This document shows positions 4,827 through 55,557 of a stretch of 64,000 nucleotides of DNA, one piece after another. Made by a program: the position numbers and the translations under genes. The stretch's first letter is position 1; every line of letters begins with the position of its first letter. Source of the DNA: a virus (taxonomy: Duplodnaviria; Caudoviricetes); the IMG/VR virus record IMGVR_UViG_2617271113_000004, positions 127,053-191,052 of that record; one strand, 5' to 3'. The notes below the pieces were generated by a model. The model saw only the letters and a program-made list of their open reading frames with translations, did no database searches and had not been told where the DNA came from.

Positions 4827-4937
4827 ATGAAAAATGATAAGAACCATCCGTGGGATGATATTCCTTTAATAAAAGTTCTCTCTGGACTTTTCATATGTGG
4901 AGTAATATTTGGAGTGTTAATGATACCGTTCTTATAA
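4827..4937 (+). CDS. 36-aa membrane peptide (not in ORF track)
   Basis: GGGGAG RBS; MKNDKNHPWDDIPLIKVLSGLFICGVIFGVLMIPFL. Confidence 0.55.
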   Translation: MKNDKNHPWDDIPLIKVLSGLFICGVIFGVLMIPFL

Positions 4938-5081
4938 TTGCTAGTTGTAAATAGGATTATCTGTTGATGATCCTATGAAGGAGCTCGCAACTCCATTTCT
5001 CATAGTAATGATTTCTTCTTTGTGATGACTCAGTTAGAGTCTTTTTTATTAGAAAAATTTATATACAGAAAGGTGATAGCT

Positions 5082-5321
5082 ATGTCTATAGTTTTTAATT
5101 CGAAACAGGAACTTACTAATCATCTAGAAAAATTTACATTAGAAGAACAGAAAACAGAGCTAGAATTTATGATTTCTAAAATTGAAGAAGAGGTAGAAAT
5201 AGCTTTAATCCAAAACAACAATGAATTAGCAATATGGAAAATGTCAATCGAGCTTCTTATTGAAGACGTGTTGAAGGAAGTAGAAAATAAATTAATCATT
5301 AACTACTCGTTGAATGTATGA
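5082..5321 (+). CDS. hypothetical protein
   Basis: AAAGGTGA RBS before ATG 5082. Confidence 0.6.
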   Translation: MSIVFNSKQELTNHLEKFTLEEQKTELEFMISKIEEEVEIALIQNNNELAIWKMSIELLIEDVLKEVENKLIINYSLNV

Positions 5322-5437
5322 TCTATGCAACATTATTTATTCTTATATGTATGTCAGGGAAATTAATTTTTTTGCCATTCCTTTTAATATTGCATGCGTT
5401 AGAAGGATGGTTTAATAAGAGAAAGGGGAGCTAAATT

Positions 5438-5659
5438 ATGTCTAGAACTGTTCAAACAACCTGTAACAACTGTGGTACGGAAATTACATTGGATTTTGGA
5501 AATGCAACTTATGAAGAAGCTTTAGTCCTTATAGATAAAATGGATAAGTCTAATCGTGAATGCCCTGGTTGGCATGTAGAAATTGGTGGTTGGAAAAAGC
5601 GATGGAACTTAGATGCAGCCGTTAAAAGTGCTTATGCTAATGAAGAGAGAGGTAAATAA
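5438..5659 (+). CDS. small Cys-containing hypothetical protein
   Basis: CNNC and CPGWH, GGGGAG RBS. Confidence 0.65.
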   Translation: MSRTVQTTCNNCGTEITLDFGNATYEEALVLIDKMDKSNRECPGWHVEIGGWKKRWNLDAAVKSAYANEERGK

Positions 5660-5679
5660 TTTAAATTAAAAATCAGGAG

Positions 5680-6597
5680 ATGATATATATGTCAGCAATT
5701 TTAAATCAAATCAAAGAATCTGTTAAAAAAGGTGTAGAAGTTAATATTCAAGGAATTGTTCAGTATGGAAAATATCCTGTATCTGTGAAAGACATTACAA
5801 ATAGTGTTACAAGTGGTTGGGAACTTACGTATCGTATAGAAAAATCGCAATTTAATGGAAAAGCATTTAACAAGCATGAACGCTTCTCCGAGCTTAAAAT
5901 GACTTCATTTAGTAATTTATACACCATGATTCAACAAGTTTATTCTCAATTCAAGCAAGGAGTTAATGTAGAAAAAAGAAATGACGGATCTAATTTCGCA
6001 GTTTATCAGCCTAATGATTCGCTTTGGTTTACTGTTAGGGACAAAAAGAACTCTGTAGCAATTACAGTTACTATTACTGATGATAACTCACCGTTTCATA
6101 TGTTAAGTGTCACTTTTGTTATTACTGCTTCAAATCAAAACGGACAACCATATATGATAGGGTATGACTCTCAATATGACCATAACACAGATACTTATAC
6201 CGAACTTTTAAATGCATCTATGCTCCCAAATAAACATGCATATGTGCCAGTTACTCGCAAAGATAACATAGGTACAATTAAGGCTGCTGGAGTAGTTAAT
6301 AATGAAGGTTTAGTAGAAATCGATTATGATCAAACAGAAGTGGTATATTTACAGAAAGTATTAAATGAAAGAAGATTATTAGCTGGTATATATGAAAAAG
6401 CTATTTTAGAGATTGTTTTAGATAAATCAAATGAATATTTTACTGCAAACTCTCAAGCACAGCAACCAATGAATGGCTTTAATCAATCATCAATGCCCCA
6501 TATGCAAAATGCCTTTCATGCACCACAAACAAATCAAGGTCTGAATTCGAATCCCTTTAATCCAGCTTTAAATTTAGATAATACTCCAGTATTCTAG
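5680..6597 (+). CDS. hypothetical protein with N/Q/P-rich tail
   Basis: 305-aa ORF, low-complexity C-terminus. Confidence 0.75.
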   Translation: MIYMSAILNQIKESVKKGVEVNIQGIVQYGKYPVSVKDITNSVTSGWELTYRIEKSQFNGKAFNKHERFSELKMTSFSNLYTMIQQVYSQFKQGVNVEKRNDGSNFAVYQPNDSLWFTVRDKKNSVAITVTITDDNSPFHMLSVTFVITASNQNGQPYMIGYDSQYDHNTDTYTELLNASMLPNKHAYVPVTRKDNIGTIKAAGVVNNEGLVEIDYDQTEVVYLQKVLNERRLLAGIYEKAILEIVLDKSNEYFTANSQAQQPMNGFNQSSMPHMQNAFHAPQTNQGLNSNPFNPALNLDNTPVF

Positions 6598-6749
6598 AAA
6601 ATCTAATTACAGAGGGTTTCAGCGCTCTCTGTAATGCTTTTCATGATAACCTTTAAAATAATCCTCATTTTTTCTTCATTTTTTGATTGTTTTCTATAAT
6701 TATCTGTTATACTATTGTTATACATAAGTAAAATGAAGGGAGAAATCCT

Positions 6750-8603
6750 ATGATTCAAGTTCGGAAGCAATATGGGAATATATATGTCCGTATTCTTGAT
6801 ACAATGGAAACTTTTGATTTCACCTTAGATAAGATACGTGATATTCCTCAACGCTCCTTTAAGCAAGATACAGGGGAGTGGATGTTTCCCCAAGAAAAAA
6901 TAGAGGACTTACTTCGGCTCTTTGAAAACCAAATAGTATGGATGCAACCTTTAAAAGATATTGTTAAGGATCTTCCTGTTAAAGATACGCTAGTACAAAA
7001 ACATCTTAATTGGGAAAATGATGATGATTTTAAACATTGGAAGATGAAGCCTTATGGATATCAAAAGGTAGGTGCACACTTTCTTGCGGATCGTGGTCAA
7101 GCAGCTATCTTTGATGGAGTAGGTTTGGGTAAGACATTGCAAGTATTAGGTGCCTCTCAGATTTTATTTAATAAAGGCCTTGCGAAAAGAGCACTTATCA
7201 TCACACTAAATAGTATTAAACGTCAGTGGGCAAAAGAAGTAGATAAATTTATGGGTGAAGAAGCTATTGCTGTATATGGCACAGAGTCTAAACGGCAAAA
7301 GCTAATTAAAGGCTTTGCAAAAAGAGATGATATACGTTTCTTAGTAATTAATTATGAAATGCTGAGAAGTAAAAAGTATCTGAACCTAATAAAATCCATT
7401 GATTTTGATATTGTTGCATTAGATGAAGCTCAGAAGATAAAAACTGGTGTAACAGATAAGATGCTCGATATGAAGCCTTCTCAGAATGCATTAGGGACAT
7501 TCGAGTTAAAAACGATTCCATATCGCTTTATTGCTACTGCAACACCAATACAATCAAAGGCGGAAGAAATATGGAGCTTATACTATTTCTTAAATGAATT
7601 TATTTTGGGCCCTTGGGAAGAATTTCGTGAACGATACTGTAAATATCACCCAAGATATGGCATTAGTGATTATTTTAACCAGGGTGAGTTATATTATCGA
7701 ATTGCACCATACTTTATTAGAAGAACCAAAGAAATGCCTGAGATACAACAGCAACTACCGAAAGTAAAGCATGATCATATTTTCTTGGAGACAACCAAAG
7801 AACAAGAACAAATAGAATCTTACTTATTAGATAAGATTGAACAGTTGAAGGAGGAGTCCAAAAAGGTAGGCTTTGATGGGAAAGTTATCAATGGTCAATT
7901 GATGAATTCAGAACAGGCAAAAGAATATTATGACGGACTTATTCAAGGTTACACATCTTTCTTATTGATGTCAGCTGATGCACCTGAGCTGTTCCAAATG
8001 TCAGAATCCCAACTTGCTGCAGGATTATTAAAAGACTTAAGTATACCCGATAATAAAATAAAACGTTCGCCTAAGTTAGAACATTTAATTGGATTTTATA
8101 ATCAATTAATGAATGATGAACCTAACTCAAAGATTGTAGTCTTCACTCGCTTTGAACGGATGGCACGATTAATCCACCAGAACATTCCTGGTTCATTGCT
8201 TTATACAGGGAAGCTGTCTGAGCGAGACAAAGAATACGCCAAAGAACAATTTGTAAATAATCCAAATAGCAAAGTTATAGTACTTACCGACGCAGGAAGT
8301 ACAGGAATGAATTTACAAGTAGCCAATTACTTAGTAAATTATGACTTACCTTGGGATCCAACATTGATAGAACAACGGAATGGGCGTATTGATCGTACAG
8401 GTAATCCTAATGCGAATATCACAATACAGTATTACGTGATGGGCGATTCATATGAAGAGCATTTACTCGAGCTTCTTAATCGTAAAGCTGACTTAGCCAG
8501 TTCGGTATTAGAAGGCGGAAAAATGAAACGAGCCTCACAAGATTTTAACAAGCTCGCAATGGAGCGCATGCTTAAGCGAAAGCAGAAGAGAGTTAAAACT
8601 TAA
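6750..8603 (+). CDS. SNF2-family helicase/ATPase
   Basis: GLGKT, DEAQ, TATP, GMNLQ, DLPWDP, QRNGRIDR. Confidence 0.93.
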   Translation: MIQVRKQYGNIYVRILDTMETFDFTLDKIRDIPQRSFKQDTGEWMFPQEKIEDLLRLFENQIVWMQPLKDIVKDLPVKDTLVQKHLNWENDDDFKHWKMKPYGYQKVGAHFLADRGQAAIFDGVGLGKTLQVLGASQILFNKGLAKRALIITLNSIKRQWAKEVDKFMGEEAIAVYGTESKRQKLIKGFAKRDDIRFLVINYEMLRSKKYLNLIKSIDFDIVALDEAQKIKTGVTDKMLDMKPSQNALGTFELKTIPYRFIATATPIQSKAEEIWSLYYFLNEFILGPWEEFRERYCKYHPRYGISDYFNQGELYYRIAPYFIRRTKEMPEIQQQLPKVKHDHIFLETTKEQEQIESYLLDKIEQLKEESKKVGFDGKVINGQLMNSEQAKEYYDGLIQGYTSFLLMSADAPELFQMSESQLAAGLLKDLSIPDNKIKRSPKLEHLIGFYNQLMNDEPNSKIVVFTRFERMARLIHQNIPGSLLYTGKLSERDKEYAKEQFVNNPNSKVIVLTDAGSTGMNLQVANYLVNYDLPWDPTLIEQRNGRIDRTGNPNANITIQYYVMGDSYEEHLLELLNRKADLASSVLEGGKMKRASQDFNKLAMERMLKRKQKRVKT

Positions 8604-9420: not shown

Positions 9421-10248
9421 GTGATTTTAATGTATTATCCAACGATTGATATAATTCATAGCTTTAATATTGGATATTCCTTTCAACCATTCTTTAATAT
9501 TGTTCAAGTCGGAGCAGGTGGAAACGGTGGTTATTTAGCACAACGTTTATCTAAGCTGTTATATGCATTAAATAGTAATAGAACCTTAAATTTTAGTTAT
9601 AAAATTACTGATGGTGATTCAGTAGAAGAAGGGAACTTACAACGGCAACCATTTATTGAGCAGGACTTGGATAGTCCAAAGGCTGAGATACTTGCTAAAC
9701 GTTATAGTAATGCCTATCAAATACCTATTTATTATAAAAACGACTATATTTTTTCCGTAGATGATGTTCATCAATTATTTGATCAGGAATACTCATTAAA
9801 TCGTCAGCTTTACATTCTTGTTGGTTGCGTTGATAATAACGCTACTCGTCAGATCATGCATGAATACTTTAATAGGTGTAGAAATATTGTTTATATCGAT
9901 AGTGGCATTGATGCTGTTGATGTAAATGGATCTAAGGAAAGTGGGTATTCTGGGCAAGTTGTTTGTGGAGTCCGGTTAAAAGATAAAGAATTACTTTCCC
10001 CTGTAGGAGGTATTTACCCTGATATATTAGCCGATAAAGAATCTCATCTTCCTACACAAGCATGTGGAGAACAAATGGTTTATTATCCGCAACGGATGCA
10101 AACTAATGAGATGGCCGCCATTATTATGAGTGGATATCTTAATACGATTCTATCTGATAATGAAATTGTATCGCATTACACAAACTTTAATGCAAGAAAT
10201 AATTTAGTTTCTCCCAATTATATTAAGAAGGGGCAGCTTGCTATATGA
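9421..10248 (+). CDS. ThiF/E1-like adenylyltransferase (PRTRC-type)
   Basis: VGAGGNGG, DGD.VE..NLQRQ, KAE, GCVDN, IDSG, candidate active Cys in QACGE. Confidence 0.92.
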   Translation: MILMYYPTIDIIHSFNIGYSFQPFFNIVQVGAGGNGGYLAQRLSKLLYALNSNRTLNFSYKITDGDSVEEGNLQRQPFIEQDLDSPKAEILAKRYSNAYQIPIYYKNDYIFSVDDVHQLFDQEYSLNRQLYILVGCVDNNATRQIMHEYFNRCRNIVYIDSGIDAVDVNGSKESGYSGQVVCGVRLKDKELLSPVGGIYPDILADKESHLPTQACGEQMVYYPQRMQTNEMAAIIMSGYLNTILSDNEIVSHYTNFNARNNLVSPNYIKKGQLAI

Positions 10249-10568
10249 ATTTTAAATTAGATACTTTTATTGATCGATTAGATCAAAAGGAATCATTACC
10301 TTTTGATCAAGTAAAAATGCATGAGAGACTAATTTTAATTGATGAGCATATCGATAATCATGAAGTAATCACTGAAGATTTTTTAGATTTCTTCACCGCA
10401 GAAGAGTTAGAATGGTACTATAATTTTATTGAATATTGGCCATCTATAGAGGCAGAGATTGAACCAGAAGATTATGATCATGAAATGATGCAGTATTCCC
10501 AAACAATTGAATTAATTAATGAGATTTCAGATATGAAAGGCATTCAAAAAGAGGTGACTTTTATATGA
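10245..10568 (+). CDS. acidic hypothetical protein in ThiF operon
   Basis: translationally coupled ORF, D/E-rich. Confidence 0.65.
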   Translation: MNFKLDTFIDRLDQKESLPFDQVKMHERLILIDEHIDNHEVITEDFLDFFTAEELEWYYNFIEYWPSIEAEIEPEDYDHEMMQYSQTIELINEISDMKGIQKEVTFI

Positions 10569-10975
10569 TTTCAGAAGAATATCGCATGGAATTAATGGAT
10601 ATAACACAAGTTATCCAAATGAGCAAACTTATGAAAGAAAGATCGTTTGAAATACCTTATATCAATTACAGAGAAGCATGTTCACCAATTATATTAGATC
10701 ATTATCTTGGACAATTTTTAGACAGATATCCTGTATTTTCACTAAGCTCAGAGCAAGATGGATATTTCTATAATATTTACCTTAAACTCAATAATAAATA
10801 TAAAGATACTGACTTTATTAAATCAGTTACTCATGCCATAGAAGGTGCTATGGCAGAGCATTTATCTGGTAGCTTGGACATTGATTATGACAACATAACT
10901 ATCTCTTTAGAAGGTTCACTATCTTGCTTTTTCATATTAAATAACATAGTAGAAGAAATAGAAACAATGTTATAA
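10565..10975 (+). CDS. hypothetical protein in ThiF operon
   Basis: coupled ORF, GAGGTGA RBS. Confidence 0.65.
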   Translation: MISEEYRMELMDITQVIQMSKLMKERSFEIPYINYREACSPIILDHYLGQFLDRYPVFSLSSEQDGYFYNIYLKLNNKYKDTDFIKSVTHAIEGAMAEHLSGSLDIDYDNITISLEGSLSCFFILNNIVEEIETML

Positions 10976-10989
10976 AGGAGGGGAGAATT

Positions 10990-11664
10990 ATAGAAACCAC
11001 AATTGTTCTAAACGAGCACAAACCTGCTAAGGTAACATTCCAAAAAAATGGTGCAACTTATGAGAAATATTTAAATATGCAAGATCTTCTACAACAAATG
11101 ATAGCCTCACTAAGTGTAGAAGATGATAAATTTAAGGAGAAATCTACACCAATTACTATTTCACCATCCTTACCAACGAACACAGTGAAATACTCTAAAT
11201 TAAGTGATGGAACAGATATTATATTCCTTGTTCATCCAGAGTGTAATGTAGATGTTAAATATCATCAATCTACTTTTATAGAAGTTCCAATACCTAATTT
11301 GGTTTTTTGTTTCATGGTTAGAAATCACCGCTTGGTAGCTAAACACGTACTTTGCTATAAAGATCGATTCTTACGAGATGATTCTCAATTGTATTATTTT
11401 CCATTTTCTAATGTTTTTTCTGATGGGAGTATGTGTTATCACACCAATATAGAAATAAAGGATCTCGTTCAATTACAGACATTCCCTTTAACATGGTTAA
11501 GTGAACCATTTAATGATCACTTGTATTATCAAAGCAATAGCAATTTTAATTTGCCCTTACGAGAATTATTAGAAAAGACACAGGGGGGATCTTTTGACTA
11601 TACAATGTTAAAGAAAAAATCAATTGATTTTAATACATGGAGTTCAAAATTAATTAATTACTAA
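10990..11664 (+). CDS. prokaryotic E2 family D protein (ATA start at 10990 or ATG at 11077)
   Basis: LYYFPFSNVFSDGSMC motif; strong RBS precedes in-frame ATA. Confidence 0.8.
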   Translation: METTIVLNEHKPAKVTFQKNGATYEKYLNMQDLLQQMIASLSVEDDKFKEKSTPITISPSLPTNTVKYSKLSDGTDIIFLVHPECNVDVKYHQSTFIEVPIPNLVFCFMVRNHRLVAKHVLCYKDRFLRDDSQLYYFPFSNVFSDGSMCYHTNIEIKDLVQLQTFPLTWLSEPFNDHLYYQSNSNFNLPLRELLEKTQGGSFDYTMLKKKSIDFNTWSSKLINY

Positions 11665-11686
11665 TATATCAAGGAGGAATATAAAT

Positions 11687-12121
11687 ATGTCTTCATTAGA
11701 GTTTGATAAAGAAAAAGAACAGCAGCCTACATTTGGGACTAACTTAGATCAAGAGGAACCAAAGGAGCCTGAACAAGCAGAAATTCCTGAAGAAGAGCCT
11801 GAAAAGAAACCAAAAGAAAATTTAGAAGAGAATGGGCAATTTTCATTATTTGAGGAGCCTAAGCAAGAAAAGAAAGCACCTAAGAAGCCTAGTACTGCAC
11901 CTAAGAAGAAATCTAAACCATCTCAAAAAGTTGGAATGGAATACACGGTTTATTATGCTGGACATCAAGTTCCAGTACCAGAAGAAGATATGACAATGGA
12001 TACTGTGCGGAGTTATTTAGAGACAGATTTTCCTGAGTTATCTAAGGATCGCACTGAAATGCTAATTGATGAGAAAAATAAACAAATAGTACCTGTTGTA
12101 AAAGGTGCCAAGAAAGGATAA
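11687..12121 (+). CDS. ubiquitin-like protein (PRTRC protein C-like) with disordered N-terminus
   Basis: YAG..VP.P..MT.D.VR.YL...FPEL, C-terminal GAKKG; QFSLF in N-terminal part. Confidence 0.75.
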   Translation: MSSLEFDKEKEQQPTFGTNLDQEEPKEPEQAEIPEEEPEKKPKENLEENGQFSLFEEPKQEKKAPKKPSTAPKKKSKPSQKVGMEYTVYYAGHQVPVPEEDMTMDTVRSYLETDFPELSKDRTEMLIDEKNKQIVPVVKGAKKG

Positions 12122-12126
12122 ATAAT

Positions 12127-12948
12127 ATGTTCGAAATACCAAAAATTCAGTTGCCGACACCAGAAGAAGCAGTTCAAATTCGAAAAGATAAATATAAATC
12201 TGCAAGTGAGTGTTTAGAAAACATGTCTTATTGGTTGCCTAAAGTGGAAGCATCATCCGCTAGAGATGTATCTTCTTTACAAATCCCTTTTACTAAGACT
12301 ATCACCCTTAACTTAGAAACATATGAATGGCTATTAAGTGATAATTATACACAAGAAACTATTCAAGAATTTAATCAATCGATAATTGAAGATCTAGGTG
12401 ATTTCCTAATTGATCAAAAGCTTTTTATTAAAACAGGAAACTTTAGCAATAAGTTTCAATTCAAAAATACGGTTGTATCAGATCGAGAAAAACTAGGAAA
12501 ACAGTTTCTTAACATCTATTATGACGCTATGTGTTTTGGTGTTCCTGATTCGAACGAAATTGTCATTAGAGAGTACATCGAAGATAAAGAAGATAGACCT
12601 ACAATTTATTCTGGTATGCCACTACATACCGAGTTCCGAGTTTTTTATGATTTCGATATTGACGAACCTATTGGTATCTCAAATTACTGGCATCCTGATG
12701 AAATGTTAGAATGGTTATCTGAACCTGACTTAACATCTTATAAAAGTATTAAAGATACAATTGTATCTGATTTTAACAAATACAAGAAGAATGTTGTTTT
12801 ACAAGTATCTATTTTAATGCAAGGCGTTACAAGTCTAAAAGGAAAATGGTCAATAGACGTGATGAAAAATGGAGAAGATTTTTGGATTATTGATATGGCA
12901 CGTATGGAACGAAGTGCATTAGTCAATAAAATGGAATCATTAACTTAA
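12127..12948 (+). CDS. ATP-grasp fold protein (R2K/Cdc123-like)
   Basis: LFIKT...S.K, IVIREYI, EFRVF, WSIDV...FWIIDM. Confidence 0.7.
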   Translation: MFEIPKIQLPTPEEAVQIRKDKYKSASECLENMSYWLPKVEASSARDVSSLQIPFTKTITLNLETYEWLLSDNYTQETIQEFNQSIIEDLGDFLIDQKLFIKTGNFSNKFQFKNTVVSDREKLGKQFLNIYYDAMCFGVPDSNEIVIREYIEDKEDRPTIYSGMPLHTEFRVFYDFDIDEPIGISNYWHPDEMLEWLSEPDLTSYKSIKDTIVSDFNKYKKNVVLQVSILMQGVTSLKGKWSIDVMKNGEDFWIIDMARMERSALVNKMESLT

Positions 12949-12953
12949 CAGTT

Positions 12954-13280
12954 GTGGAATATATTTTACTAGATTTAACAGGACGTGATCAGATGGTGAA
13001 GGAAATAAAATATACCAAAAATAAGGAAATAATTGAATTAGCAAATCAAGATAGAAAAGCCTTATTAAATCAAGTTTATCAACATTATAAAGGTGCATTA
13101 TATATTGTAGACAGTGTAGCTCGTCATACAGAAACTGGTGAGCAAATGGTTGTATATAGAAGTTTAGATACAGGACAACAATGGGTGCGGCCTAAGGATA
13201 TGTTCTTAGATATAATACAAAAAGAAGAAGGATATACATTTAGATTTACTAAATTTCAAATAGGAGATTTTCTAAGATGA
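12954..13280 (+). CDS. DUF1653 protein
   Basis: YQHYKG..Y, ARHTETGE.MVVY, WVRP..MF. Confidence 0.85.
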   Translation: MEYILLDLTGRDQMVKEIKYTKNKEIIELANQDRKALLNQVYQHYKGALYIVDSVARHTETGEQMVVYRSLDTGQQWVRPKDMFLDIIQKEEGYTFRFTKFQIGDFLR

Positions 13281-21243: not shown

Positions 21244-21963
21244 ATGAACAACAATTTTAACGGTGGTTTTAACCCTGGACAACAACAAGGATTCCCTCCA
21301 CAACCTAACGGGAACTTCAATCCTAATCAAAACATGAACGGAGGAAATCAAGGAGGTAATTCTGGATCAAATTCCAATAAGCCTTCATATAATAAATTTG
21401 TTGTTTTAGCAAATTTAACAAAAGATCCTGAAGGTAAAACAGTGAATAATAGCAAAGTTGCTTCATCAAGCATCGCAGTTAATCATCCAAACAATCAAAC
21501 TGATTTCTGGGATATTGAAGTATGGGTAAATCAAGGAAATAGTTCCGGTACACATGATTTCCTATTAGATTATTGTAAGAAAGGTCGTCAGCTGCTAATT
21601 GAAGGAGAACCTTACCTCAAACGTCGTAAAAGACAAATAAACGGTCAAGATGTATTAGATCAAAACGGAAAAGGTGTTTATGATTACTATCCAACAATTA
21701 AAGTAACTAATCTTACTGGACTTGCTGGTGGTCAGTCAAATAATAATAACAATAGTAATCAAGGTAATCAGCAACAAGGGCAGCAGAACAATTTTAATCA
21801 ACAAGCACCACAGCCAAATGGTGGTTTTAATCCACAGCAACAGCAAGGAGGATTTGCTCCACAAGGGAACTTTGGTGCCCCACAAGGTGCTCCAGGAATG
21901 CAACAAGGGGCTCCAAACGGACAAGGTTTTGGTCCTCCAAGTGGACAATTCATTCAAAGATAG
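21244..21963 (+). CDS. ssb: single-stranded DNA-binding protein with G/N/Q-rich tails
   Basis: NK.V..NLTKDPE, IAVN, TDF..I.VW, KKG.Q..IEG. Confidence 0.88.
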   Translation: MNNNFNGGFNPGQQQGFPPQPNGNFNPNQNMNGGNQGGNSGSNSNKPSYNKFVVLANLTKDPEGKTVNNSKVASSSIAVNHPNNQTDFWDIEVWVNQGNSSGTHDFLLDYCKKGRQLLIEGEPYLKRRKRQINGQDVLDQNGKGVYDYYPTIKVTNLTGLAGGQSNNNNNSNQGNQQQGQQNNFNQQAPQPNGGFNPQQQQGGFAPQGNFGAPQGAPGMQQGAPNGQGFGPPSGQFIQR

Positions 21964-29735: not shown

Positions 29736-31361
29736 ATGCATACAACAAATGAATTAAGTGGTATAGACGAAATCAATATGCTAATTAGCGCAAGAAGAAA
29801 GGCCATTCTAATTGAAACTTATGAAGAGCAACGAGTTCAAAAAGATTTAAAAGAAATCATTACAAATAGACAAATGGGAGCGGTAACTTGGTCCATTACA
29901 GGTGGTGGTTTTGACTTAATAGAAGAAACTAAAAGTGAAAAATTTAACTTTTCGGACCCAATTAAGCTTATGAATGCAATTAAAAATTCTGAAGAACAGA
30001 ATGTATTTATCTTGAAAGACTTTCACGATATTTGGACAAATTATCAAGCTAAGCGTGCTTTAAGGGATGTATTAGAAAAAAATGATGAAGTATATAAGCC
30101 AATTATTTTTTTGTCTCCATTCATAAGTATACCTGCAGAGTTGGAAAAATTAATTACAACAGTTCGTTATGAACTTCCAAGCAGAGCACAAGTTATCGAG
30201 CAGCTTGAAGGTTTGAATAACTTTTTAATTACTAACGACTTGCCTGTTGCTGAGGGACGAGAACGTGAGGCAATTATTCACTCACTAGTAGGTATGACAA
30301 AAACTGAAATTAATAATGTGTTGAAGAAATCTGTATCTAAGCATAAAAAAATTTCGCTCGAAGAAATTACCGCTGAAAAAGAGCAGGTTATTCGTAAAAC
30401 TGGTTTGTTGGAATACATTACAAAACTAGGAGATATGAAAAATGTTGGTGGAATGGATATCTTTAAAGACTGGATATCTGACGCATACTATGCATTTGCT
30501 CCTGAAGCAAGAGAGTATAATATTGATCCTGCCAGAGGGGTTATAATGGCCGGGTTCCCTGGGTCAGGTAAGAGTCTAAGTGCAAAGTCATTAGCAAATT
30601 CATGGAACTTACCTTTACTTAAAATGAATATGAGCCAAATTATGGACTCAAAGGTTGGTCAATCTGAAAAGAATATTGATCGTGCCCTTAAACTTGCAGA
30701 AGACGTTTCTCCATGTGTTTTATGGATTGATGAGTTAGAAAAAGGCTTAAGTGGAATTAGCTCATCAGATAAAAGTGATTCAGGAACACTTTCAAGAGTG
30801 GTACAATCTCTTTTAACTTGGCTTTCAGATAAAGTAGCACCTGTATTTGTTGTAGCAACAGCAAATGACATTACAAATCTCCCTCCCGAGTTAACAAGAG
30901 CAGGACGATTTGATGAAATTTTCTTTGTTTCTATTCCTTCTCCAGAAGAGAGGAAAGATATTCTATCCATTCATTTAAAGAAGCGTGGATATGAAATTTC
31001 GGAACAAGCTGAACTTGCAATAAATGAATTTCCAGACTACACCCTAGCTGAAATAGCAGAAGAAATGGATGGTTTTACAGGAGCAGAAATTGAGCAAGTT
31101 GTTGCTGAAGCAGGAAGACGTGCTTATGCAGAATATAAAAAGGAAATTCGTGATATGCATTACATGACAAAAGATGATTTAATTTCTCAAGCAGCTAAAA
31201 CAATTCCTATGAGCAGGAGAAATAATGAAGTTCTCTATAATCTTCGAGAATGGGCAAAAGAAGCTGCAAAATGCGCTTCATCTTTTGAACACGACATCAT
31301 TCATCATAAAAATGGAACAAATAAAAACAAAATCATTGAATTTGATGATATTGAAATTTAA
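29736..31361 (+). CDS. Ycf46-like AAA+ ATPase
   Basis: LKDFH N-domain, GFPGSGKS, LWIDE, VATAN, LPPELTRAGRFD, LREWA. Confidence 0.92.
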   Translation: MHTTNELSGIDEINMLISARRKAILIETYEEQRVQKDLKEIITNRQMGAVTWSITGGGFDLIEETKSEKFNFSDPIKLMNAIKNSEEQNVFILKDFHDIWTNYQAKRALRDVLEKNDEVYKPIIFLSPFISIPAELEKLITTVRYELPSRAQVIEQLEGLNNFLITNDLPVAEGREREAIIHSLVGMTKTEINNVLKKSVSKHKKISLEEITAEKEQVIRKTGLLEYITKLGDMKNVGGMDIFKDWISDAYYAFAPEAREYNIDPARGVIMAGFPGSGKSLSAKSLANSWNLPLLKMNMSQIMDSKVGQSEKNIDRALKLAEDVSPCVLWIDELEKGLSGISSSDKSDSGTLSRVVQSLLTWLSDKVAPVFVVATANDITNLPPELTRAGRFDEIFFVSIPSPEERKDILSIHLKKRGYEISEQAELAINEFPDYTLAEIAEEMDGFTGAEIEQVVAEAGRRAYAEYKKEIRDMHYMTKDDLISQAAKTIPMSRRNNEVLYNLREWAKEAAKCASSFEHDIIHHKNGTNKNKIIEFDDIEI

Positions 31362-47438: not shown

Positions 47439-50400
47439 ATGGCTACATTTCATTCAGATGAGATATATAAGCTTGAAGTTTATAATGGAAGAGCTGGCGG
47501 AGACAGAGACGTATTTGTTGATCTATTAATAACTTCACAGGCTAGAAGTAAAGAAATTTACTTAGCAAGTATTAGTGGATCTGATAATGATGTGAAGCAA
47601 GTCTCTTGGCTGTTCCAAGAAGGCAAGAAAACTGGTCGTTTTAGAAGAGCAGAAGGTAATGTGTTTGAAGATGATCATATAAAAAGGAATATTTTCACAC
47701 ATGCAAAGAAGAATCAGTACACAGAACATAAAACAAAGCTTGGTGATGTATCACAAACACTATTAGTTTCAAAAAGCATCAATCCTAAAACGAAAGAAAG
47801 ACAAGATTGGCAAATGGATGAGGATAGACGTAATCCTACTATTAATAGAATGATTCCTGATGATTTAGCTGAATTAGTCATAGCCTGGGATGGTGATGTT
47901 GAAACACAGATATATAAGGTTTTAAATGATCGTTATGGAACGCCAATGATTGAAGAATGGAAAGACTTTATTGTTGAATCATTGATTGATGAAGGGTATT
48001 ACAAACCATTGGAAGTTTATACATTTGGTATAGAGAACCCTGTTGAAGCTGGATTAATTAAAGTAACCGAGAGGCAATTAGAGAGTATTATCTCAGAAGG
48101 AATTACATCATATGAGTTAGATTTTGCTTTATTAGAAGACCCCACACAGGAAGATGTTTTGTCCGGTTTAAATTCAATTGATGATTATTTAAGTCACTTT
48201 GCTGGAGATCTGGCAGAATGCATTCAAGAAAATATTGAATTGCGTTTCGATCCTAAGAAAGATAAGCACCATCCAGCATTCAAAGATGTAAACCTGACTG
48301 CTAATGAGCATGGACTGACAGGCTTGTTTCCACCACAAGCTGACACTGTTATGGGAGTAGCAAATACACTTAAAGAAGATAATTATGCTTTTGTCATAGG
48401 TGAAATGGGTGCGGGAAAAACTCCAATAGGAATGGTTTCCCCTTATTTAGCACAAGCTGTATCTAGTCGTGACGGGAGCGTTAAACCGTATCGCTCATTA
48501 GTCTTTTCTCCTAGCATTATGGTTGAGAAGTGGAAGCGAGAGATTAAAGAACGTATTCCTAATTGTGAAGTACACGAAATCTCCCATTGGCAAGATGTAT
48601 TACAGCTAAAGAATAAGCCTTATCGACCAACTAAAATTGAATATTATGTAATGAACAGCGATTTACCGAAATACACGTATCCAATGGAACCAGTTAAGGA
48701 TTGGCGCTACTCAAATGAAGATGCAAAGGCATATTGGTCAAGATATAAAGAAGATATGCACTTAAATGGGCAAACAAAAATGAACCGCCCTAAATTACGT
48801 TTTAAGAAAGATATTATTCATAATTATGTAACTGGTCATGATACAGCGACTTATAAATCGACTGAAACAGCCTTTCATTGCCCTAAATGTGGTGGAAAAC
48901 TAGAAGAAAAGAAGGACACTTCAGCAGGACCTCATTTCTTTGAACAACGTACTGGTCGTAAATGGGCAACAAAGATTAAGAAAGATACTAATTATGTTTG
49001 TAAAAACACCGTTCAAACAAAGTACTTACCTAAAGAAGAGATAATTGATCCAAGTAAACGGGAACAAGAATGTGGTTTTGTATTATGGCAGCCAGAAAAG
49101 CTAGAGGCCGGTTCAAAGAAAAGAAAGGTTTCTCCAGCTTGGGCAATTAATAAGTTCTTACGTAGAGGCTTCTTTAAATATCTTATTGCGGATGAAGTTC
49201 ATGAGTATAAATCTGGTGACTCTACAACTGCTCAAGCTTTTGGACAACTCATTAATCATACCGAGAAACAGATATTGCTAACTGGTACATTAATGGGTGG
49301 AATGGCTAGCGACATATTCTACTTACTTGCACGTCTAGATCCAAAGCGTTTATTGAAAGAAAGTATCACTTACAAAGACGAAGCTTTATTTACACAACGT
49401 TATGGTGTATTTGAAAAGAAATCAAAGAATCGTGAAAATGGCAGAAGACAAACCAGTTCTAATAAGAAGCCAGGGATATCACCACACTTATTTCCTGTTT
49501 ATCTTATGAGAAACTGTGCCTTCTTAGAATTAAGCGACTTAGGTTATGCATTACCTCCTTATCAGGAGATTCCAGTATTTGTTGAAATGCATCCTCAGCA
49601 AGCAAGACATTACAAGAAATTAGAAGAAGAATTAGGAAATCAGATGAGAAGTAATGCGTTCTTGGGTGGAATGAAATATGTTTCAACATACATTAATACC
49701 ATGAATCAGTATTCAGATCTTCCTTTCAACTTTAATGATATTAATAGCTATGATGAAAATGGAAATTCAGTTACTTTAGCTACACCTTATTCATTTAATC
49801 CTGATGAGTTTAACCCACCTAAGTTTGATCGAATGCTAATGGATATAGATGAAGAATTATTTAATCAAGAAAAGAAGAGAAAGTGCCTTATCTATGTAAA
49901 ATATACTGGCTCTAACTCATATAATCAAGCGGATACGTATCTTTACAATAAGTTAAAACATCTTGGATACAACGTTGGTATACTTCGCTCATCAGGTTCC
50001 TATGACGGGATTAAAATGCCAAAGCGATCTAAAGATCGAGAGCAATGGCTAAAAGACCAGATGAAACAACATGATTGGGATATTCTTATTACAAATCCGA
50101 AACTAGTTAAGGTTGGTTTAGACTTATTGGATTTCCCTAATATTATGTATTATCAAATGGATTACAGTACCTATGATTACATGCAGTCATCAAGAAGATC
50201 TTGGAGGATTAAACAAACGGAAGATGTGAAAGTATTTACGTATTCTTACCGTAATTCTATTCAAGATCAAGTACTTGAGCATGTTGCAACAAAAATAGAT
50301 GCAGCAATGGCAATGCAAGGGAAGTTCAGTGAAGAAGGTCTACGTTCAATGGCTGATTCTAATGATGGTGTTCATTCTCTAGCTAAGAAATTGTTGGATG

Positions 50401-50738
50401 AAGGAACGCTAGATAACGTTGAAACTATTCATGAACGATTCCAACGACTTAATCAATCATACGAAGAACTTCAAACTGCAAATTATGAAGATTACGACCA
50501 TTATGAAGTGAATCCAATTGAAGGCGGTATGGAAACCGTTAAGCAAATTGCTCAAGGTCTGATTAAAGAATTCGAAGAAAAGGTTTCTTCTGGCACTGCT
50601 ACAGTAGAAGATCTAGCTGCATATATGGAGAAATTCGATGAAATGATGCAAGTTGTAGATGATGCAAAAGCTTATAATAAAGGTAAAAAGAAGAAAGAAA
50701 AAGTAGTAGAAGGACAAGTAGCCCTAGCATTGTTCTAG
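47439..50738 (+). CDS. large SNF2-related helicase (DUF6094-associated type)
   Basis: GEMGAGKT, IADEVH, LTGT, GLDL, QSSRRSWRI; internal CPKC. Confidence 0.88.
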   Translation: MATFHSDEIYKLEVYNGRAGGDRDVFVDLLITSQARSKEIYLASISGSDNDVKQVSWLFQEGKKTGRFRRAEGNVFEDDHIKRNIFTHAKKNQYTEHKTKLGDVSQTLLVSKSINPKTKERQDWQMDEDRRNPTINRMIPDDLAELVIAWDGDVETQIYKVLNDRYGTPMIEEWKDFIVESLIDEGYYKPLEVYTFGIENPVEAGLIKVTERQLESIISEGITSYELDFALLEDPTQEDVLSGLNSIDDYLSHFAGDLAECIQENIELRFDPKKDKHHPAFKDVNLTANEHGLTGLFPPQADTVMGVANTLKEDNYAFVIGEMGAGKTPIGMVSPYLAQAVSSRDGSVKPYRSLVFSPSIMVEKWKREIKERIPNCEVHEISHWQDVLQLKNKPYRPTKIEYYVMNSDLPKYTYPMEPVKDWRYSNEDAKAYWSRYKEDMHLNGQTKMNRPKLRFKKDIIHNYVTGHDTATYKSTETAFHCPKCGGKLEEKKDTSAGPHFFEQRTGRKWATKIKKDTNYVCKNTVQTKYLPKEEIIDPSKREQECGFVLWQPEKLEAGSKKRKVSPAWAINKFLRRGFFKYLIADEVHEYKSGDSTTAQAFGQLINHTEKQILLTGTLMGGMASDIFYLLARLDPKRLLKESITYKDEALFTQRYGVFEKKSKNRENGRRQTSSNKKPGISPHLFPVYLMRNCAFLELSDLGYALPPYQEIPVFVEMHPQQARHYKKLEEELGNQMRSNAFLGGMKYVSTYINTMNQYSDLPFNFNDINSYDENGNSVTLATPYSFNPDEFNPPKFDRMLMDIDEELFNQEKKRKCLIYVKYTGSNSYNQADTYLYNKLKHLGYNVGILRSSGSYDGIKMPKRSKDREQWLKDQMKQHDWDILITNPKLVKVGLDLLDFPNIMYYQMDYSTYDYMQSSRRSWRIKQTEDVKVFTYSYRNSIQDQVLEHVATKIDAAMAMQGKFSEEGLRSMADSNDGVHSLAKKLLDEGTLDNVETIHERFQRLNQSYEELQTANYEDYDHYEVNPIEGGMETVKQIAQGLIKEFEEKVSSGTATVEDLAAYMEKFDEMMQVVDDAKAYNKGKKKKEKVVEGQVALALF

Positions 50739-51247: not shown

Positions 51248-51491
51248 AAATGTAACGAATATGTCTAATTATGAGCTGCTTAATTTTGGCTCTGAAATAA
51301 GTTCTTACAATGAGCTTATTCAAAATGAGTGGTTTAAACGACATCAAATGAATTTCCCTTATATGTTGGACGTTGATAATCGTATCGTACACGGTGTTAT
51401 TAAAGAGGTAATTCCAGATGAAAATTGCGATAGATTGATTTTAGAACAAGCTAATAAAATTAGGAGTGATAAGTATGACAACAGCTGTTGA
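51210..51491 (+). CDS. hypothetical protein
   Basis: overlapping ORF in operon. Confidence 0.5.
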   Translation: MRGITMTKSQVNKNVTNMSNYELLNFGSEISSYNELIQNEWFKRHQMNFPYMLDVDNRIVHGVIKEVIPDENCDRLILEQANKIRSDKYDNSC

Positions 51492-52746
51492 AGAAATAGT
51501 TGAGCTAAACAATGAAGTAGAAGAAAGTTTACAAACTCATGTTGAGGTTCAAATTAAAAAAGATGTAATGCAAAACATCATTAAACGTGTAGAACGCTCT
51601 AAAGAAAAGAAAGGTGTAGTGCCTATAAAGCAGGGGATATATCTTCACTTTGGAGAAGATCAAATTACAGCACGTGCTCTAAATAATGATTATTCAACTC
51701 AAGTAATTGTTAAAAAAACAAAAGATAACTATACATTTTTAGAGGGAGCTTCTGGTGGTGCCGTATTCATGGATCCCAAACTGTCATCTATGGTAAATAG
51801 CATGCCGAGAAAAAACATTAAACTATCGATTCATGCAAGTAATGCTGTAATAAGTGCTGGGCGTACATCCTTTGAACTTAAAACATTGGATTCTCTTGAA
51901 TTCCCACAATTCATGGACAATATTGAAGGTCCAGAAGTCAAACTACATTCTGATGTATTAAAACGTATGTATGTTAAAACCACTTTTGCTGCATCAACCT
52001 TAGAAACTAGACCAGCATTAACAGGTGTGCAACATAAAGTTAAAGATAAACGATTTTCCCTAGCAGCTACCGATTCTTATCGTTTAGCGACAATTACCCA
52101 AGAGCTAGACGAAGAAGTTGAAGAAATTAATACCGTTATTCCTGCTCCAGCTTTAAGTGAAATTCAGAAGCAATTAGATGACAGTGTATCTCAAGTTTCC
52201 ATTCGTTTCTCTAAATCATCAGTAGCTTATTCATTTGATAATGGTACTACAATCATATCTCGTGTGATCGATAGTCCTTATCCGGATATCTCAAAACTAA
52301 TACCAGATCAATTTACAACTGAAATTCAATTTAGAGTAGATGAAATTCGAGAACTTGTAAAACGTGCAATGCTTGTTGATCAAGAAAATTCTGTGCAGCT
52401 TCTTGTTAAGGCAGAAGCTCTACAAGCACGTTTCATCTCTAGAGAGTCAGAGAAAGCTGGTTTTGTAGAGGATATATCACCAACTGAAGGGGAAGGAAAG
52501 GATGTAAAGTTAGGTCTTAATATTCGGTATTTGTTAGATACTTTAAATCATCATTCACCTAATTCCCTTATCAAAATGCAATTTGTAAGCAATTCAAGAC
52601 CAATTATCATACGTCTAGTTGATGGTGATCAAGACAATTTAGATTTAGTACTTCCAGTAAAGTTAGCTGGTAACGATAATCCAGAAGATGTTGTAATTGA
52701 GGATTTTCGAGGGGATATTCAAATCAAAATAGAGGATGGAGAATAG
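51466..52746 (+). CDS. dnaN: DNA polymerase III beta clamp
   Basis: EFP, FAAS..ETRP.LTGV, ATDS.RLA, SR.ID..YPD...LIP, N..YLLD.L, LVLPV. Confidence 0.93.
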   Translation: MISMTTAVEEIVELNNEVEESLQTHVEVQIKKDVMQNIIKRVERSKEKKGVVPIKQGIYLHFGEDQITARALNNDYSTQVIVKKTKDNYTFLEGASGGAVFMDPKLSSMVNSMPRKNIKLSIHASNAVISAGRTSFELKTLDSLEFPQFMDNIEGPEVKLHSDVLKRMYVKTTFAASTLETRPALTGVQHKVKDKRFSLAATDSYRLATITQELDEEVEEINTVIPAPALSEIQKQLDDSVSQVSIRFSKSSVAYSFDNGTTIISRVIDSPYPDISKLIPDQFTTEIQFRVDEIRELVKRAMLVDQENSVQLLVKAEALQARFISRESEKAGFVEDISPTEGEGKDVKLGLNIRYLLDTLNHHSPNSLIKMQFVSNSRPIIIRLVDGDQDNLDLVLPVKLAGNDNPEDVVIEDFRGDIQIKIEDGE

Positions 52747-52806: not shown

Positions 52807-53247
52807 GTGAACATTAATCCTGAAATCGACTGGAATTCCGAGGAATTAAAATGTGTTTGTGGAACTATAATTGATGTTTCAAATATAATTGATGAGTGTT
52901 CAGAGCGATTAGATACATTTAATCCTATTTCTTCTTTAAATAAAGAAGTGATTTGCAGTTGTGGAAGATCATATAACGTAGATTTAAGACTAAAGATTAA
53001 CATTGATGTTGAATCATCCGTTAGTTTAACTCATGATATCCAATATTATGATAAAAATGACAAAGTAATAATGCCAGGATTTTTTGAAGAGTTGCAATGT
53101 GAAGATGAAGTTAATCTTTGGGACGGAGAATACATCTATGATAATAAAGTGTATCGAGTAGTAGATGGCAAGGTATTTTATATATTGTCTGCTGAAACAG
53201 ATGAGAACCAAATGAATATATTTCAGTTGGAAGAGGTGCCTGTATAA
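52807..53247 (+). CDS. hypothetical zinc-binding protein
   Basis: CVCG, CSCG; C-terminal QMNIF. Confidence 0.65.
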   Translation: MNINPEIDWNSEELKCVCGTIIDVSNIIDECSERLDTFNPISSLNKEVICSCGRSYNVDLRLKINIDVESSVSLTHDIQYYDKNDKVIMPGFFEELQCEDEVNLWDGEYIYDNKVYRVVDGKVFYILSAETDENQMNIFQLEEVPV

Positions 53248-54248: not shown

Positions 54249-54292
54249 TTGTATAGAAGTTGTTATTTGGATATAATAAGAACAAACGTTCT
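54249..54292 (+). promoter_or_regulatory. sigma-A promoter with LexA (Cheo) box
   Basis: TTGTAT-17-TATAAT; AGAACAAACGTTCT at 54279-54292. Confidence 0.85.
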
Positions 54293-54300
54293 TATTCGGA

Positions 54301-55557
54301 GTGATTAAAATGGATTATTCAACTTATCCTCGCAACAATATATTGTGCATTGATATGCGTTCTTTCTATGCATCAGTGGAAGCTGTTAAATTAGGTTTAG
54401 ACCCAATGACAACTATGCTTGCAGTAGTTGGTGATCCTAATAGGTCCGGGAGTATAGTGTTAGCTGCGTCTCCAGCATTGAAAAAGAAGCATGGTATAAG
54501 TAATGTTAGTCGTTATTTTGAATTACCGAATGATCCAGAGATACACATAGTTAAGGCTCATATGGCTGATTATATAAATGTTTCAATGAATATAACACGT
54601 TTACTTAATAAATATGCACCACTAGAAGCCATACACCAGTATTCAGTGGATGAAGTATGGGTTACTGTTAATGGTTTAGAAAAGCTATTCGGTACTCCTT
54701 TGGAAATTGCAAACATGATTAAAGAGGATATCTTAGATAACTTTGGTATCACATGTTCAATAGGTATAGGCGATAATAAATTTTTAGCTAAAGTTGTAAT
54801 GGATCTACACGCAAAGAAAGTTGGAATTGCTGAATGTAGGTATGAAGATGTTCAAGACAAATTATGGCCATTCCCGATTGAAGATATCTGGGGGATTGGA
54901 AATAGAATGAAACGCAATTTAAATCGAATGGGTATTGTAACATTAGGTCAGATTGCAAGGTATGATTTAAAAAGTTTAAAAAAAAGATTCGGAGTCATGG
55001 GAGAACAGTTGTATTGGCACTCATGGGGAATTGATTTAAGTCCTGTTATTGGAAACTTTACGCAATCGGAGCAGAAAAGTTTCGGACACGGTATAACTTT
55101 ACTAAGAGATTATTCAGCAAATGAAATAGGTACGGTTATCCTAGATTTATGTGAAGAAGCATGTAGAAGAGCAAGAGAATCGAAAGTAGCAGGCAGAACA
55201 ATACATCTTAGCATTGGATATGCAAGAGAAATTGGTGGAGGTTTTTCAAGATCAATTACTGTTGACTACACAAATGTCACAATAGATATGTATAAAGAGT
55301 GTATGAATTTATTCCATAAGTTTTATGATGGTCATAGCAATATAAGAAGGGTTAGTGTATCTATAACCAACTTAATGTCTGTAGACAGTATTCAATTGAA
55401 TCTATTTGAGGATACTGCTAAGAAAAATGATATCGGTAATGTTATGGATCAGATTCGCAGTAAATATGGATCAACAGCTATATTGAGGGCTAGTAGTTAT
55501 ACAGATGCAGGGATCACTATAGATAGAAGTAAGAAAATAGGTGGTCATTATGCATAA
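54301..55557 (+). CDS. Y-family DNA polymerase (UvrX/YqjW-like)
   Basis: CIDMRSFYASVE, YSVDE, LAK, WGIG, QLNLF, D.IR.KYG. Confidence 0.95.
   Translation: MIKMDYSTYPRNNILCIDMRSFYASVEAVKLGLDPMTTMLAVVGDPNRSGSIVLAASPALKKKHGISNVSRYFELPNDPEIHIVKAHMADYINVSMNITRLLNKYAPLEAIHQYSVDEVWVTVNGLEKLFGTPLEIANMIKEDILDNFGITCSIGIGDNKFLAKVVMDLHAKKVGIAECRYEDVQDKLWPFPIEDIWGIGNRMKRNLNRMGIVTLGQIARYDLKSLKKRFGVMGEQLYWHSWGIDLSPVIGNFTQSEQKSFGHGITLLRDYSANEIGTVILDLCEEACRRARESKVAGRTIHLSIGYAREIGGGFSRSITVDYTNVTIDMYKECMNLFHKFYDGHSNIRRVSVSITNLMSVDSIQLNLFEDTAKKNDIGNVMDQIRSKYGSTAILRASSYTDAGITIDRSKKIGGHYA

Follow-up and report, generated by a model that had tools for sequence, protein, structure and literature searches.

Organization of the cassette

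We examined a stretch of 64,000 nucleotides (hereafter the window) that forms the last 64 kb of IMG/VR record IMGVR_UViG_2617271113_000004, which is 191,052 bases long, classed as a provirus and rated 97% complete. On the plus strand, positions 9421–12121 of the window hold five tightly packed genes in the order E1, ORF107, ORF136, E2 and Ubl, the last of which codes for a ubiquitin-like modifier (Ubl). The original prediction, made from the letters of this region, had described a ThiF/E1 protein, two small open reading frames (ORFs), an E2 of family D with its cysteine and a Ubl ending in GAKKG, and this gene content and its coordinates were borne out. It had also pointed to the pentapeptide QFSLF in the N-terminal part of the Ubl as a candidate binding motif for the β sliding clamp, DnaN. 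This motif, its conservation and its possible partners are the main subject of the present analysis.

The first gene (9421–10248) encodes a ThiF-family adenylating enzyme, recognized by PF00899 with an E-value of 2.2e-8 and 34 bits against a cut-off of 28.1; translation probably starts at ATG 9430, as in relatives. The closest NCBIfam model is TIGR03736 (PRTRC_ThiF), which E1 matches with an E-value of 2.2e-17 and yet with only 63 bits against a cut-off of 144.75. No variation was seen among 14 sequences in the GxGGxG motif or at residues D64, D66, R75, Q76, K87, D138 and C215. In two Paenibacillus plasmids, P. lautus pAZOPL1 and a plasmid of Paenibacillus sp. Cedars (L055 and L056; locus 4875–7726), the annotated E1 is only 408 bases long and a reverse-transcriptase gene comes next, an arrangement that looks like insertion of a group II intron into E1.

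The E2 (10987–11664) belongs to Prok-E2 family D (PF14460, E-value 2e-7, 31.3 bits against a cut-off of 25), while its score with TIGR03737 (PRTRC_B) is 18 bits against a cut-off of 131. Cys120 does not vary among the 14 aligned relatives, nor in a second comparison, where it is kept in 19 of 19 sequences. The first ATG is at 11077; the frame is open 5′ of this codon, approximately 30 extra residues align with the N-termini of relatives, and a GGAGG at 10977–10981 precedes the candidate starts ATT 10987 and ATA 10990. Translation probably begins at one or other of these non-canonical codons, and an ATG-only gene call therefore truncates the E2. An AlphaFold2 (AF2) model, with a predicted local distance difference test (pLDDT) score of 83, shows a β-meander, a Cys loop and then helices. 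When this model was compared with the PDB using Foldseek, no match was obtained at E ≤ 0.001 and no E2 was present among the top 50. PADLOC likewise returned no match for the E2 or the Ubl, and only weak matches of E1 to Cap2-type E1–E2 models (best E-value 2.8e-5).

Between E1 and E2 lie two small genes for which no Pfam, NCBIfam or PADLOC family was found, and a look-up of both products in the Protein Atlas gave nothing usable. ORF107 (10245–10568; 107 residues), which overlaps the E1 stop by four bases, is a conserved component of the cassette: it has phmmer matches in two related loci (L001 and L003) and aligns with the ORFs of around 110 residues located two genes upstream of E2 in 10 relatives (hhalign probability 92.9, E-value 3.8e-7). 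The proteins of this family, in the window and in loci L004–L019, end with a conserved aromatic pair (..FF or ..FY), the form in the window being ..TFI; to judge from these endings, the aromatic terminus may be another terminal docking motif. ORF136 (10565–10975; 136 residues) overlaps ORF107 by four bases and is a fast-diverging accessory protein. An ORF of 136–250 residues stands just before E2 in every locus read, and ORF136 shares the position of these ORFs and a weak likeness to them (hhalign probability 15).

The triad of E2, Ubl (with or without a fused JAB domain) and E1, accompanied by an ORF107-like gene, was found in 17 genome, 8 viral and 9 metagenome loci. The usual order in the loci read is the ORF of about 110 residues, the ORF of 136–250 residues, E2, Ubl (with or without JAB) and E1. 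In the window, and in L001 and L003, E1 has moved to the front.

The Ubl and its family

The Ubl gene (11687–12121) codes for 144 residues, comprising a disordered tail (residues 1–80) and a β-grasp core (residues 81–144) with a free C-terminal glycine; the stop codon directly follows GAKKG. In an AF2 model based on a 43-sequence alignment, residues 1–80 show no secondary structure and have block-mean pLDDT values of 49–74, falling to approximately 49–56 in the region of the QFSLF motif, and the tail is not docked on the core of its own molecule. Residues 81–140 form a β-β-α-β-β arrangement with pLDDT values of 92–96. The terminal glycine, G144, is conserved in at least 90% of aligned sequences. 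The match of the protein itself to PF14454 (Prok_Ub) is below threshold (E-value 0.019, 15.2 bits against a cut-off of 25), and Foldseek found no significant match for the Ubl model in the PDB. Since neither model gave a significant PDB match, the fold assignments of the Ubl and the E2 rest on sequence families and topology.

A profile built from nine close Ubl homologues was used to search 1.84 billion representatives and retrieved 182 proteins at E ≤ 0.001. Domains were scanned in 110 sequences, namely the Ubl of the window and 109 of the best 150 representatives, leaving out seven short or odd sequences within P0010–P0125 and all those beyond P0125. In this set 13 match Prok_Ub and 5 match PRTRC_C; Prok-JAB (29 sequences) or PRTRC_A (31) domains are fused directly behind the Ubl, and six proteins have a peripheral-subunit-binding domain (E3_binding, PF02817) in the tail. 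A GC-rich subfamily (P0036, P0042, P0050, P0071, P0091, P0093 and others) has the tail motif [ED]-[DN]-[LF]-F-D-[LV]-[LM]-G-E, followed in order by the peripheral-subunit-binding domain, the Ubl and a fused JAB. Of 10 clusters of distant representatives looked up, 2 bear a taxon name. With regard to the C-termini of the 150 representatives, 55 stop exactly at the glycine, 34 have 1–15 extra residues, 6 have 16–99 and 44 have at least 100 (JAB fusions); 10 are partial matches and 1 is of another kind.

In the element under study, no JAB peptidase accompanies the modifier. The original prediction had noted its absence from the window, and PF14464 in fact has no match at E ≤ 1 even in the whole 191,052-base record. 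TIGR03735 also has no match in the record, though its control likewise matched in no genome. PF01398 (JAB/MPN) gives a sub-threshold match only (14 bits, E-value 0.005), in an ORF of 1468 residues in the tail region outside the window (G000:C1:32121-36527, minus strand). This ORF recalls the JAB domains of phage tail-assembly proteins and probably has nothing to do with the Ubl cassette. The Ubl is made ready-processed and, to judge by the gene content, would not be removable by a cognate peptidase.

ORF273 (12127–12948) starts six bases after the Ubl stop, at the place where relatives carry JAB. We considered it as a hidden JAB and rejected it, as it belongs to no Pfam, NCBIfam or PADLOC family and BLASTP against a Ubl–JAB fusion gives an E-value of 1.6. 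Nor does it qualify as a part of the cassette, since L001 lacks it and L003 keeps only part of it. The 3′ part of ORF273 has 78–84% DNA identity, over 67–86 bases, to SPβ-like Staphylococcus phages and Lactococcus plasmids, and a DUF1653 protein is encoded downstream (12954–13280).

A conserved motif in the Ubl tail

QFSLF occupies residues 51–55 of the Ubl (11837–11851, plus strand), as originally predicted. Three strict matches to the motif are present in the approximately 60,000 ORF residues of the record, where about 1.3 would be expected by chance. A single occurrence is not significant, and the weight of the argument therefore rests on conservation of the motif. In nine close homologues (46–100% identity) the tail is otherwise variable, whereas Q51 and F55 are invariant in nine of nine, the motif appearing as QFSLF, QLALF, QLNMF or QLDLF. 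In an alignment of 43 free-standing forms of the Ubl, F55 belongs to the small number of columns conserved at 90% or more.

We then analysed the motif in the 150 best representatives of the profile search at 50% identity, 145 of which have an N-terminal tail of at least 15 residues before the core. Of these 145 tails, 36 contain the pattern Q[LFIVMY]x[LMIF]F, whereas composition-preserving shuffles yield 0.5 on average and never more than 4; the pattern is found in none of the 150 core or C-terminal parts, and the reversed pattern occurs in none of the 145 tails. The less demanding pattern [DSNEAT][LIM]F is present in 117 of the tails (21 in shuffles), and [DSN][LIM]F in 106, as against 7 of 145 for the reverse, F[LIM][DSN]. 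A consensus was built from the 124 tails containing [LIM]F, aligned on the first such dipeptide. At position −4, Q is found 42 times; position −3 is L in 29, F in 16, M in 8 and I in 7; position −2 is D in 60, S in 22 and N in 16; and position −1 is L in 104. The resulting family consensus is Q-L-[D/S]-L-F, and the commonest pentapeptide is QLDLF, with eight occurrences. The first motif falls within the first 20 residues in 73 of 117 tails, a placement typical of terminal clamp motifs. Judging by these alignments and counts, the tail motif is under strong purifying selection.

The clamp-binding consensus, which Dalrymple and colleagues reportedly defined in 2001, is QL[SD]LF and is present in bacterial polymerases, MutS/MutL, Hda and other proteins. 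The consensus of the Ubl family equals this clamp-binding pentapeptide, D or S at the third place included. The conservation proposed as a check on the original prediction is seen family-wide. As in clamp motifs, the pentapeptide lies in a disordered terminal region. To our knowledge, a clamp-binding motif has not been described on a ubiquitin-like modifier, and our literature searches found none.

The sequence around the motif also has regular features. The tail ahead of it is acidic (−0.18 net charge per residue), and it is followed by a Lys/Pro-rich basic linker, read from the sequence at 11855–11926 in the window, which connects it to the β-grasp core; between the last motif and the core, K and R make up a fraction of 0.21 family-wide (n = 116). 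A second conserved patch, LEF[DE]KE, is located at the extreme N-terminus (residues 4–10; 11696–11716), where L4, E5, F6 and E9 are invariant in nine of nine close homologues, and other Bacillales representatives begin in a comparable way, with ME[FL]E.

Occurrence of DnaN with the cassette

In line with the original prediction, the same element encodes a DnaN, a Y-family polymerase and two SNF2 proteins, all recognized by Pfam. The DnaN, a candidate partner of the Ubl, is encoded at 51466–52746 (plus strand) with all three DnaN Pfam domains present. It aligns end to end with the Bacillus subtilis clamp 4tr6 (E-value 7.6e-43) and retains the ATDS[YH]RLA and C-terminal LPV[KR] segments, which we take to line the peptide pocket. 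The Y-family polymerase (54301–55557, plus strand; IMS, IMS_C and IMS_HHH domains) carries its own motif of this type, QLNLF, at residues 365–369 (55393–55407), near its C-terminus; this is another of the three strict matches in the record.

In order to follow up the suggestion that the cassette co-occurs with dnaN, we looked for DnaN (PF02767) on the contigs that carry the Ubl. Of 17 genomes, 11 have it on that contig, namely all those in which the contig measures at least 94 kb; in the six without it, the contig measures 2.6–86 kb. Among the complete circular plasmids tested, 7 of 11 have DnaN, against a plasmid background in which 245 of 72,556 carry a DnaN-like gene at E ≤ 1e-10. For the remaining 14 of the 25 plasmids with a Ubl, at least five further ones are among the matches listed in the tblastn search with DnaN, and nine lay outside the DnaN test. 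The gene adjoins the cassette in two cases only: it is approximately 1.4 kb upstream of the cassette in Alicyclobacillus sp. TC p1 and two genes upstream of E2 in a Moorellaceae contig. The suggested co-occurrence is only partly supported, and plasmids lacking DnaN keep the motif (in the Cytobacillus plasmid, as QLDLF). The clamp of the element is frequent company for the cassette and not obligatory company. If the clamp is the partner, the clamp of the host must suffice, because elements without DnaN retain the motif.

A possible role for the tail motif

Given a family consensus that matches the clamp-binding pentapeptide, the reading that we favour, at roughly even odds, is that the tail motif is a genuine β-clamp-binding motif. 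Several observations weigh against this assignment. Q is found in only about one-quarter of the tails, and other forms go beyond the pentapeptide: several Bacillales have the extension DLFG[EN]P[IVLM], Paenibacillus tails have DLFSYFGG, and tails of the B. cereus group contain 3–5 copies of DLF, NLF, DPF or NPF. Such extended and repeated forms, which exceed the known clamp motif, may be variants of one interaction, may reflect multivalent binding to the dimeric clamp or may mean that the partner is another one. Of the 11 plasmids, 4 lack DnaN (B. velezensis pAD3, the B. thuringiensis 235 kb plasmid, the Cytobacillus plasmid and P. lautus pAZOPL1), as do three of five IMG/VR records with the cassette (present in two), two of the three being rated 100% complete. 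Nor was it found in any of nine metagenome loci, the sequence read there extending no more than 10 kb to either side of the Ubl match. Where the two do occur together, this may only reflect the shared ancestry of large self-replicating phage-plasmids. Finally, the assignment of the proteins themselves includes a sub-threshold Pfam match for the Ubl and no significant Foldseek match for either Ubl or E2, and the absence of JAB means that there is no known route of removal, which fits conjugation, yet is unusual for the family.

Two further observations concern the Paenibacillus forms. Tails of the type Q-x-D-L-F-S-Y-F fit the eukaryotic PCNA-interacting protein box (PIP-box) pattern Qxx[LIM]xx[FY][FY]. 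On two Paenibacillus phage-plasmid contigs with a DLFSYFGG Ubl, Q-type motifs on other proteins number 13 versus 8.75 and 3 versus 6.3, which is near chance.

The Ubl is a bipartite protein, with a C-terminal β-grasp for the chemistry and a disordered N-terminal tail of approximately 80 residues made up of the acidic stretch, Q-[LF]-[SD]-L-F and the Lys/Pro-rich stretch. E1 would adenylate the already exposed C-terminal glycine and take the Ubl onto Cys215; the Ubl would then be handed to the E2 cysteine, and the E2 would join it to lysines of the target. If the motif does bind the clamp, it would dock the Ubl, either free or as the E2 thioester, on DNA-loaded clamps, both those of the host and those that some elements encode, so that the Ubl itself would provide the targeting that an E3 provides elsewhere. 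Conjugation might fall on the clamp or on proteins located at the clamp; alternatively, a tagged protein might gain a clamp handle. That the clamp or its clients are the conjugation target is a tentative proposal, and we think it rather doubtful.

The same low expectation applies to the most specific form of this idea, a self-targeting modifier, which we put forward as an improbable but explicit model. Here the motif would dock E2~Ubl on DNA-loaded β clamps without an E3, and the clamp, or the occupant of its other pocket, would be tagged. Tethered beside the pocket by the basic linker of about 25 residues, the tag could plug or re-programme the clamp. In this way the phage-plasmid, which has a divergent DnaN of its own to use, might bring about a change of polymerase or a stop to host replication. 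The parallel with the RAD6 pathway drawn in the original prediction, that is, a role in translesion synthesis, is an idea suggested by analogy.

The motif on the modifier turns the unassigned target of the 6d/PRTRC class of cassettes (see below) into one sharp hypothesis, the clamp. Binding to the clamp would mean that the signal for targeting can reside in a ubiquitin-like modifier itself and that a bacterial Ubl conjugation system is tied to the replisome and not to antiphage defence. It would constitute an independent parallel to eukaryotic PCNA modification, and it would show how jumbo phage-plasmids of Bacillales manage replication. Should the self-targeting model be true, prokaryotes would have a counterpart of PCNA ubiquitination and SUMOylation, and the 6d/PRTRC class its first assigned target. 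If the motif binds something else, it would still be a handle for finding the partner by pull-down.

Alternative partners for the motif

Instead of the clamp, the motif could bind a part of its own system (E1, E2, ORF107, ORF136 or, in relatives, the JAB domain) or the β-grasp of another Ubl, in the manner of a SUMO-interacting motif (SIM) or an LC3-interacting region (LIR), in which a hydrophobic core comes after an acidic run. Its function would then be to drive activation, chain formation or self-inhibition. Such a partner is suggested by the fact that the motif accompanies the cassette in all loci, those of elements lacking DnaN included, by the acidic stretch ahead of it and by forms such as [FY]-D-L-F, which are like aromatic-x-x-aliphatic cores; moreover, the conserved flanks in DLFG[EN]P[IV] and DLFSYFGG suggest an interface larger than the clamp pocket requires. 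However, the AF2 monomer, in which the tail is undocked and the motif has low pLDDT values, does not favour contact with the core of the same molecule. The motif is also near-constant across very divergent cassettes, with E2 identity down to approximately 20%, so that a universally conserved partner is the easier explanation, and Q at −4 with D or S at −2 is specific to the clamp motif. We allow a partner within the system a small though appreciable chance.

The motif may recruit another conserved host protein, whether a partner of the type that reads the tail of SSB, a recombination or repair protein, or an AAA+ unfoldase for which the tail would be a Pup-like handle. The D-[LP]-F repeats in an acidic context in tails of the B. 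cereus group would suit this, and genes for RecA, SSB, UvrD and UDG lie in the vicinity. The window also encodes, at 29736–31361 and 18 kb downstream of the cassette, an AAA+ ATPase of the classic clade (AAA and AAA_lid_3 domains), which has a counterpart in L001, near the cassette of a B. halotolerans plasmid, and is a conceivable reader of a disordered tag. Recognition of the SSB tip requires a free C-terminal Phe, whereas the Ubl motif is N-terminal or internal and never C-terminal; in addition, the preference for Q, L and [DS] is not expected for partners of this kind. The acidic tip of SSB is the usual recruiter of its partners, and mimicry of an SSB tail was demoted as a candidate since the SSB of the element itself lacks such a tip. 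Overall, a host partner other than the clamp seems distinctly unlikely.

It is very improbable that the cassette is a pathway for sulfur carriage or adenylation only, of the ThiS/MoaD–ThiF kind, with no conjugation to protein. NCBI does label the Ubl of one relative a 'MoaD/ThiS family protein', E1 has weak ThiF and MoeB-type matches (NCBIfam), and PAPS-reductase genes are found near some cassettes. Nevertheless, an E2 with an invariant Cys is always present, a JAB peptidase is fused right behind the Ubl glycine in 29–31 of 110 relatives, the cassette has no thiamine or molybdopterin genes and E1 has no rhodanese domain. Finally, that QFSLF is a functionless chance match in a low-complexity tail is hardly credible. 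The number of strict matches in the ORFs of the record leaves room for it, but conservation within an otherwise unalignable tail, an excess of about 70-fold over shuffles and the complete lack of the reversed pattern already contradict it.

Relationship to known systems

By its protein families, the cassette is a variant, without JAB and without ParB, of the uncharacterised '6d' or PRTRC-like bacterial Ubl conjugation cassette. In excerpts of Iyer et al. 2006 (PMC1779556), the matching operon type is row 6d of Table 1, and the features given there that recur in the window are a stand-alone β-grasp Ubl with a C-terminal Gly, a single-domain ThiF-type E1, a family D E2 with a conserved Cys, small and rapidly diverging accessory proteins, and location on plasmids or mobile elements, including those of B. 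cereus and B. thuringiensis. The window differs in that no JAB/PRTRC_A or ParB-related gene is present in the 191 kb record, the Ubl is ready-processed and E1 is the first gene; moreover, the long disordered tail with its clamp-binding-like motif is absent from the description in those excerpts of PMC1779556, a paper in which the word 'clamp' is found solely in the name of an author.

The label PRTRC-type, used in the original prediction, consequently needs qualification. The E1/E2/Ubl operon is of the PRTRC/6d kind. A search of the 191 kb record with PF02195 (ParB_N) was negative at E ≤ 0.01, its control matching in 11 of 14 genomes, and the cassette is not a full PRTRC system, because the two parts that gave it its name (a ParB-related protein and PRTRC_A/JAB) are absent. 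The NCBIfam PRTRC scores of the cassette proteins are also far below the cut-offs. In the literature searched, which did not include Burroughs et al. 2009 and 2011 or supplementary tables, where the operon type may be treated, we found neither a function for the 6d/PRTRC class nor a link between a Ubl and the clamp. Comparative genomics brought this type of cassette to light in 2006; the new element, as far as the sequences indicate, is the family-wide clamp-binding-like motif on the modifier.

The characterised bacterial systems are Bil (BilABCD), Bub and CBASS Cap2/Cap3, other operon families being mentioned as uncharacterised in excerpts of two papers (PMC11601596, PMC11601603). According to the same excerpts, these systems resemble the window cassette in having E1, E2 and Ubl without an E3, with targeting ascribed to the E2 or the Ubl, and the Ubls of Bub and Bil have diverse N-terminal regions, disordered ones included (PMC11601596, PMC11601603). 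They differ in their protein families, as indicated by the weak PADLOC matches of E1 and the lack of any for E2 and Ubl, and in their setting, the window cassette being part of a phage-plasmid replication module and the compared systems of a defence island. Neither paper speaks of a clamp, the word having 0 occurrences in PMC11601603.

With regard to clamp motifs in general, the likeness of the Ubl motif extends to its disordered terminal setting, to the identical family consensus and to the QLNLF of the element's own polymerase; the difference is that many family members lack Q or have repeats or extensions, and that binding of the Ubl to the clamp is predicted. The eukaryotic pathways of PCNA ubiquitination and SUMOylation (RAD6/RAD18, Ubc9/Siz1) and the PIP-box and PIP-degron proteins offer a conceptual parallel only, in that a ubiquitin-like modifier meets a sliding clamp, and the enzymes are not homologous beyond superfamily. 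In eukaryotes the clamp-binding element is on the E3 or the substrate and not on the modifier.

The element and its other genes

The window codes for a Rep3-type initiator, an integrase, DnaG, UvrD, RecA, SSB, UDG, dUTPase and ThyX, in addition to the proteins discussed above, and the remainder of the record codes for a tail sheath, large terminase, prohead protease and tail proteins. The closest relatives of the Ubl in PLSDB are in 25 records, all of them 'non-mobilizable' plasmids of 124–256 kb from Bacillus, Paenibacillus, Alicyclobacillus, Cytobacillus and Thermobacillus, one of them from B. thuringiensis israelensis (235 kb). IMG/VR also classes several of these contigs as viral. Among named relatives the best is Oceanobacillus profundus, in which a contig of 194.7 kb encodes a Ubl with 63% identity, and tblastn with the Ubl gave no match in the GenBank phage set. 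By its gene content the element is a jumbo myovirus-like phage-plasmid of approximately 191 kb with a Bacillaceae host, as it combines Rep3 and an integrase with a tail sheath and terminase, has plasmid relatives in PLSDB and shares contigs between PLSDB and the viral records of IMG/VR; the cassette lies within its replication and repair module. Such jumbo phage-plasmids of Bacillales are pBtic235-like elements.

A SNF2-family helicase (6750–8603, plus strand; SNF2-rel_dom and Helicase_C) precedes the cassette, as it also does in related loci L003 and L004, and the second SNF2 protein is encoded at 47439–50738. Elsewhere the neighbours of the cassette include a DinG-like helicase with YdjM (Paenibacillus). 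The SSB of the element (21244–21963) has long Q/N/G-rich tails flanking the OB fold and ends in ...GQFIQR. Right behind dnaN, an ORF of 146 residues (52807–53247) that belongs to no Pfam family has QMNIF seven residues from its C-terminus; on the basis of this motif its product may be another clamp client.

A perfect GAAC-N4-GTTC palindrome, GAACAAACGTTC, is located at 54280–54291, nine bases ahead of the polymerase start, and a second lies at 59121–59132, ahead of the ORF at 59189–60004. These two occurrences in the window compare with 0.71 expected, and 11 of 100 shuffles reach two.

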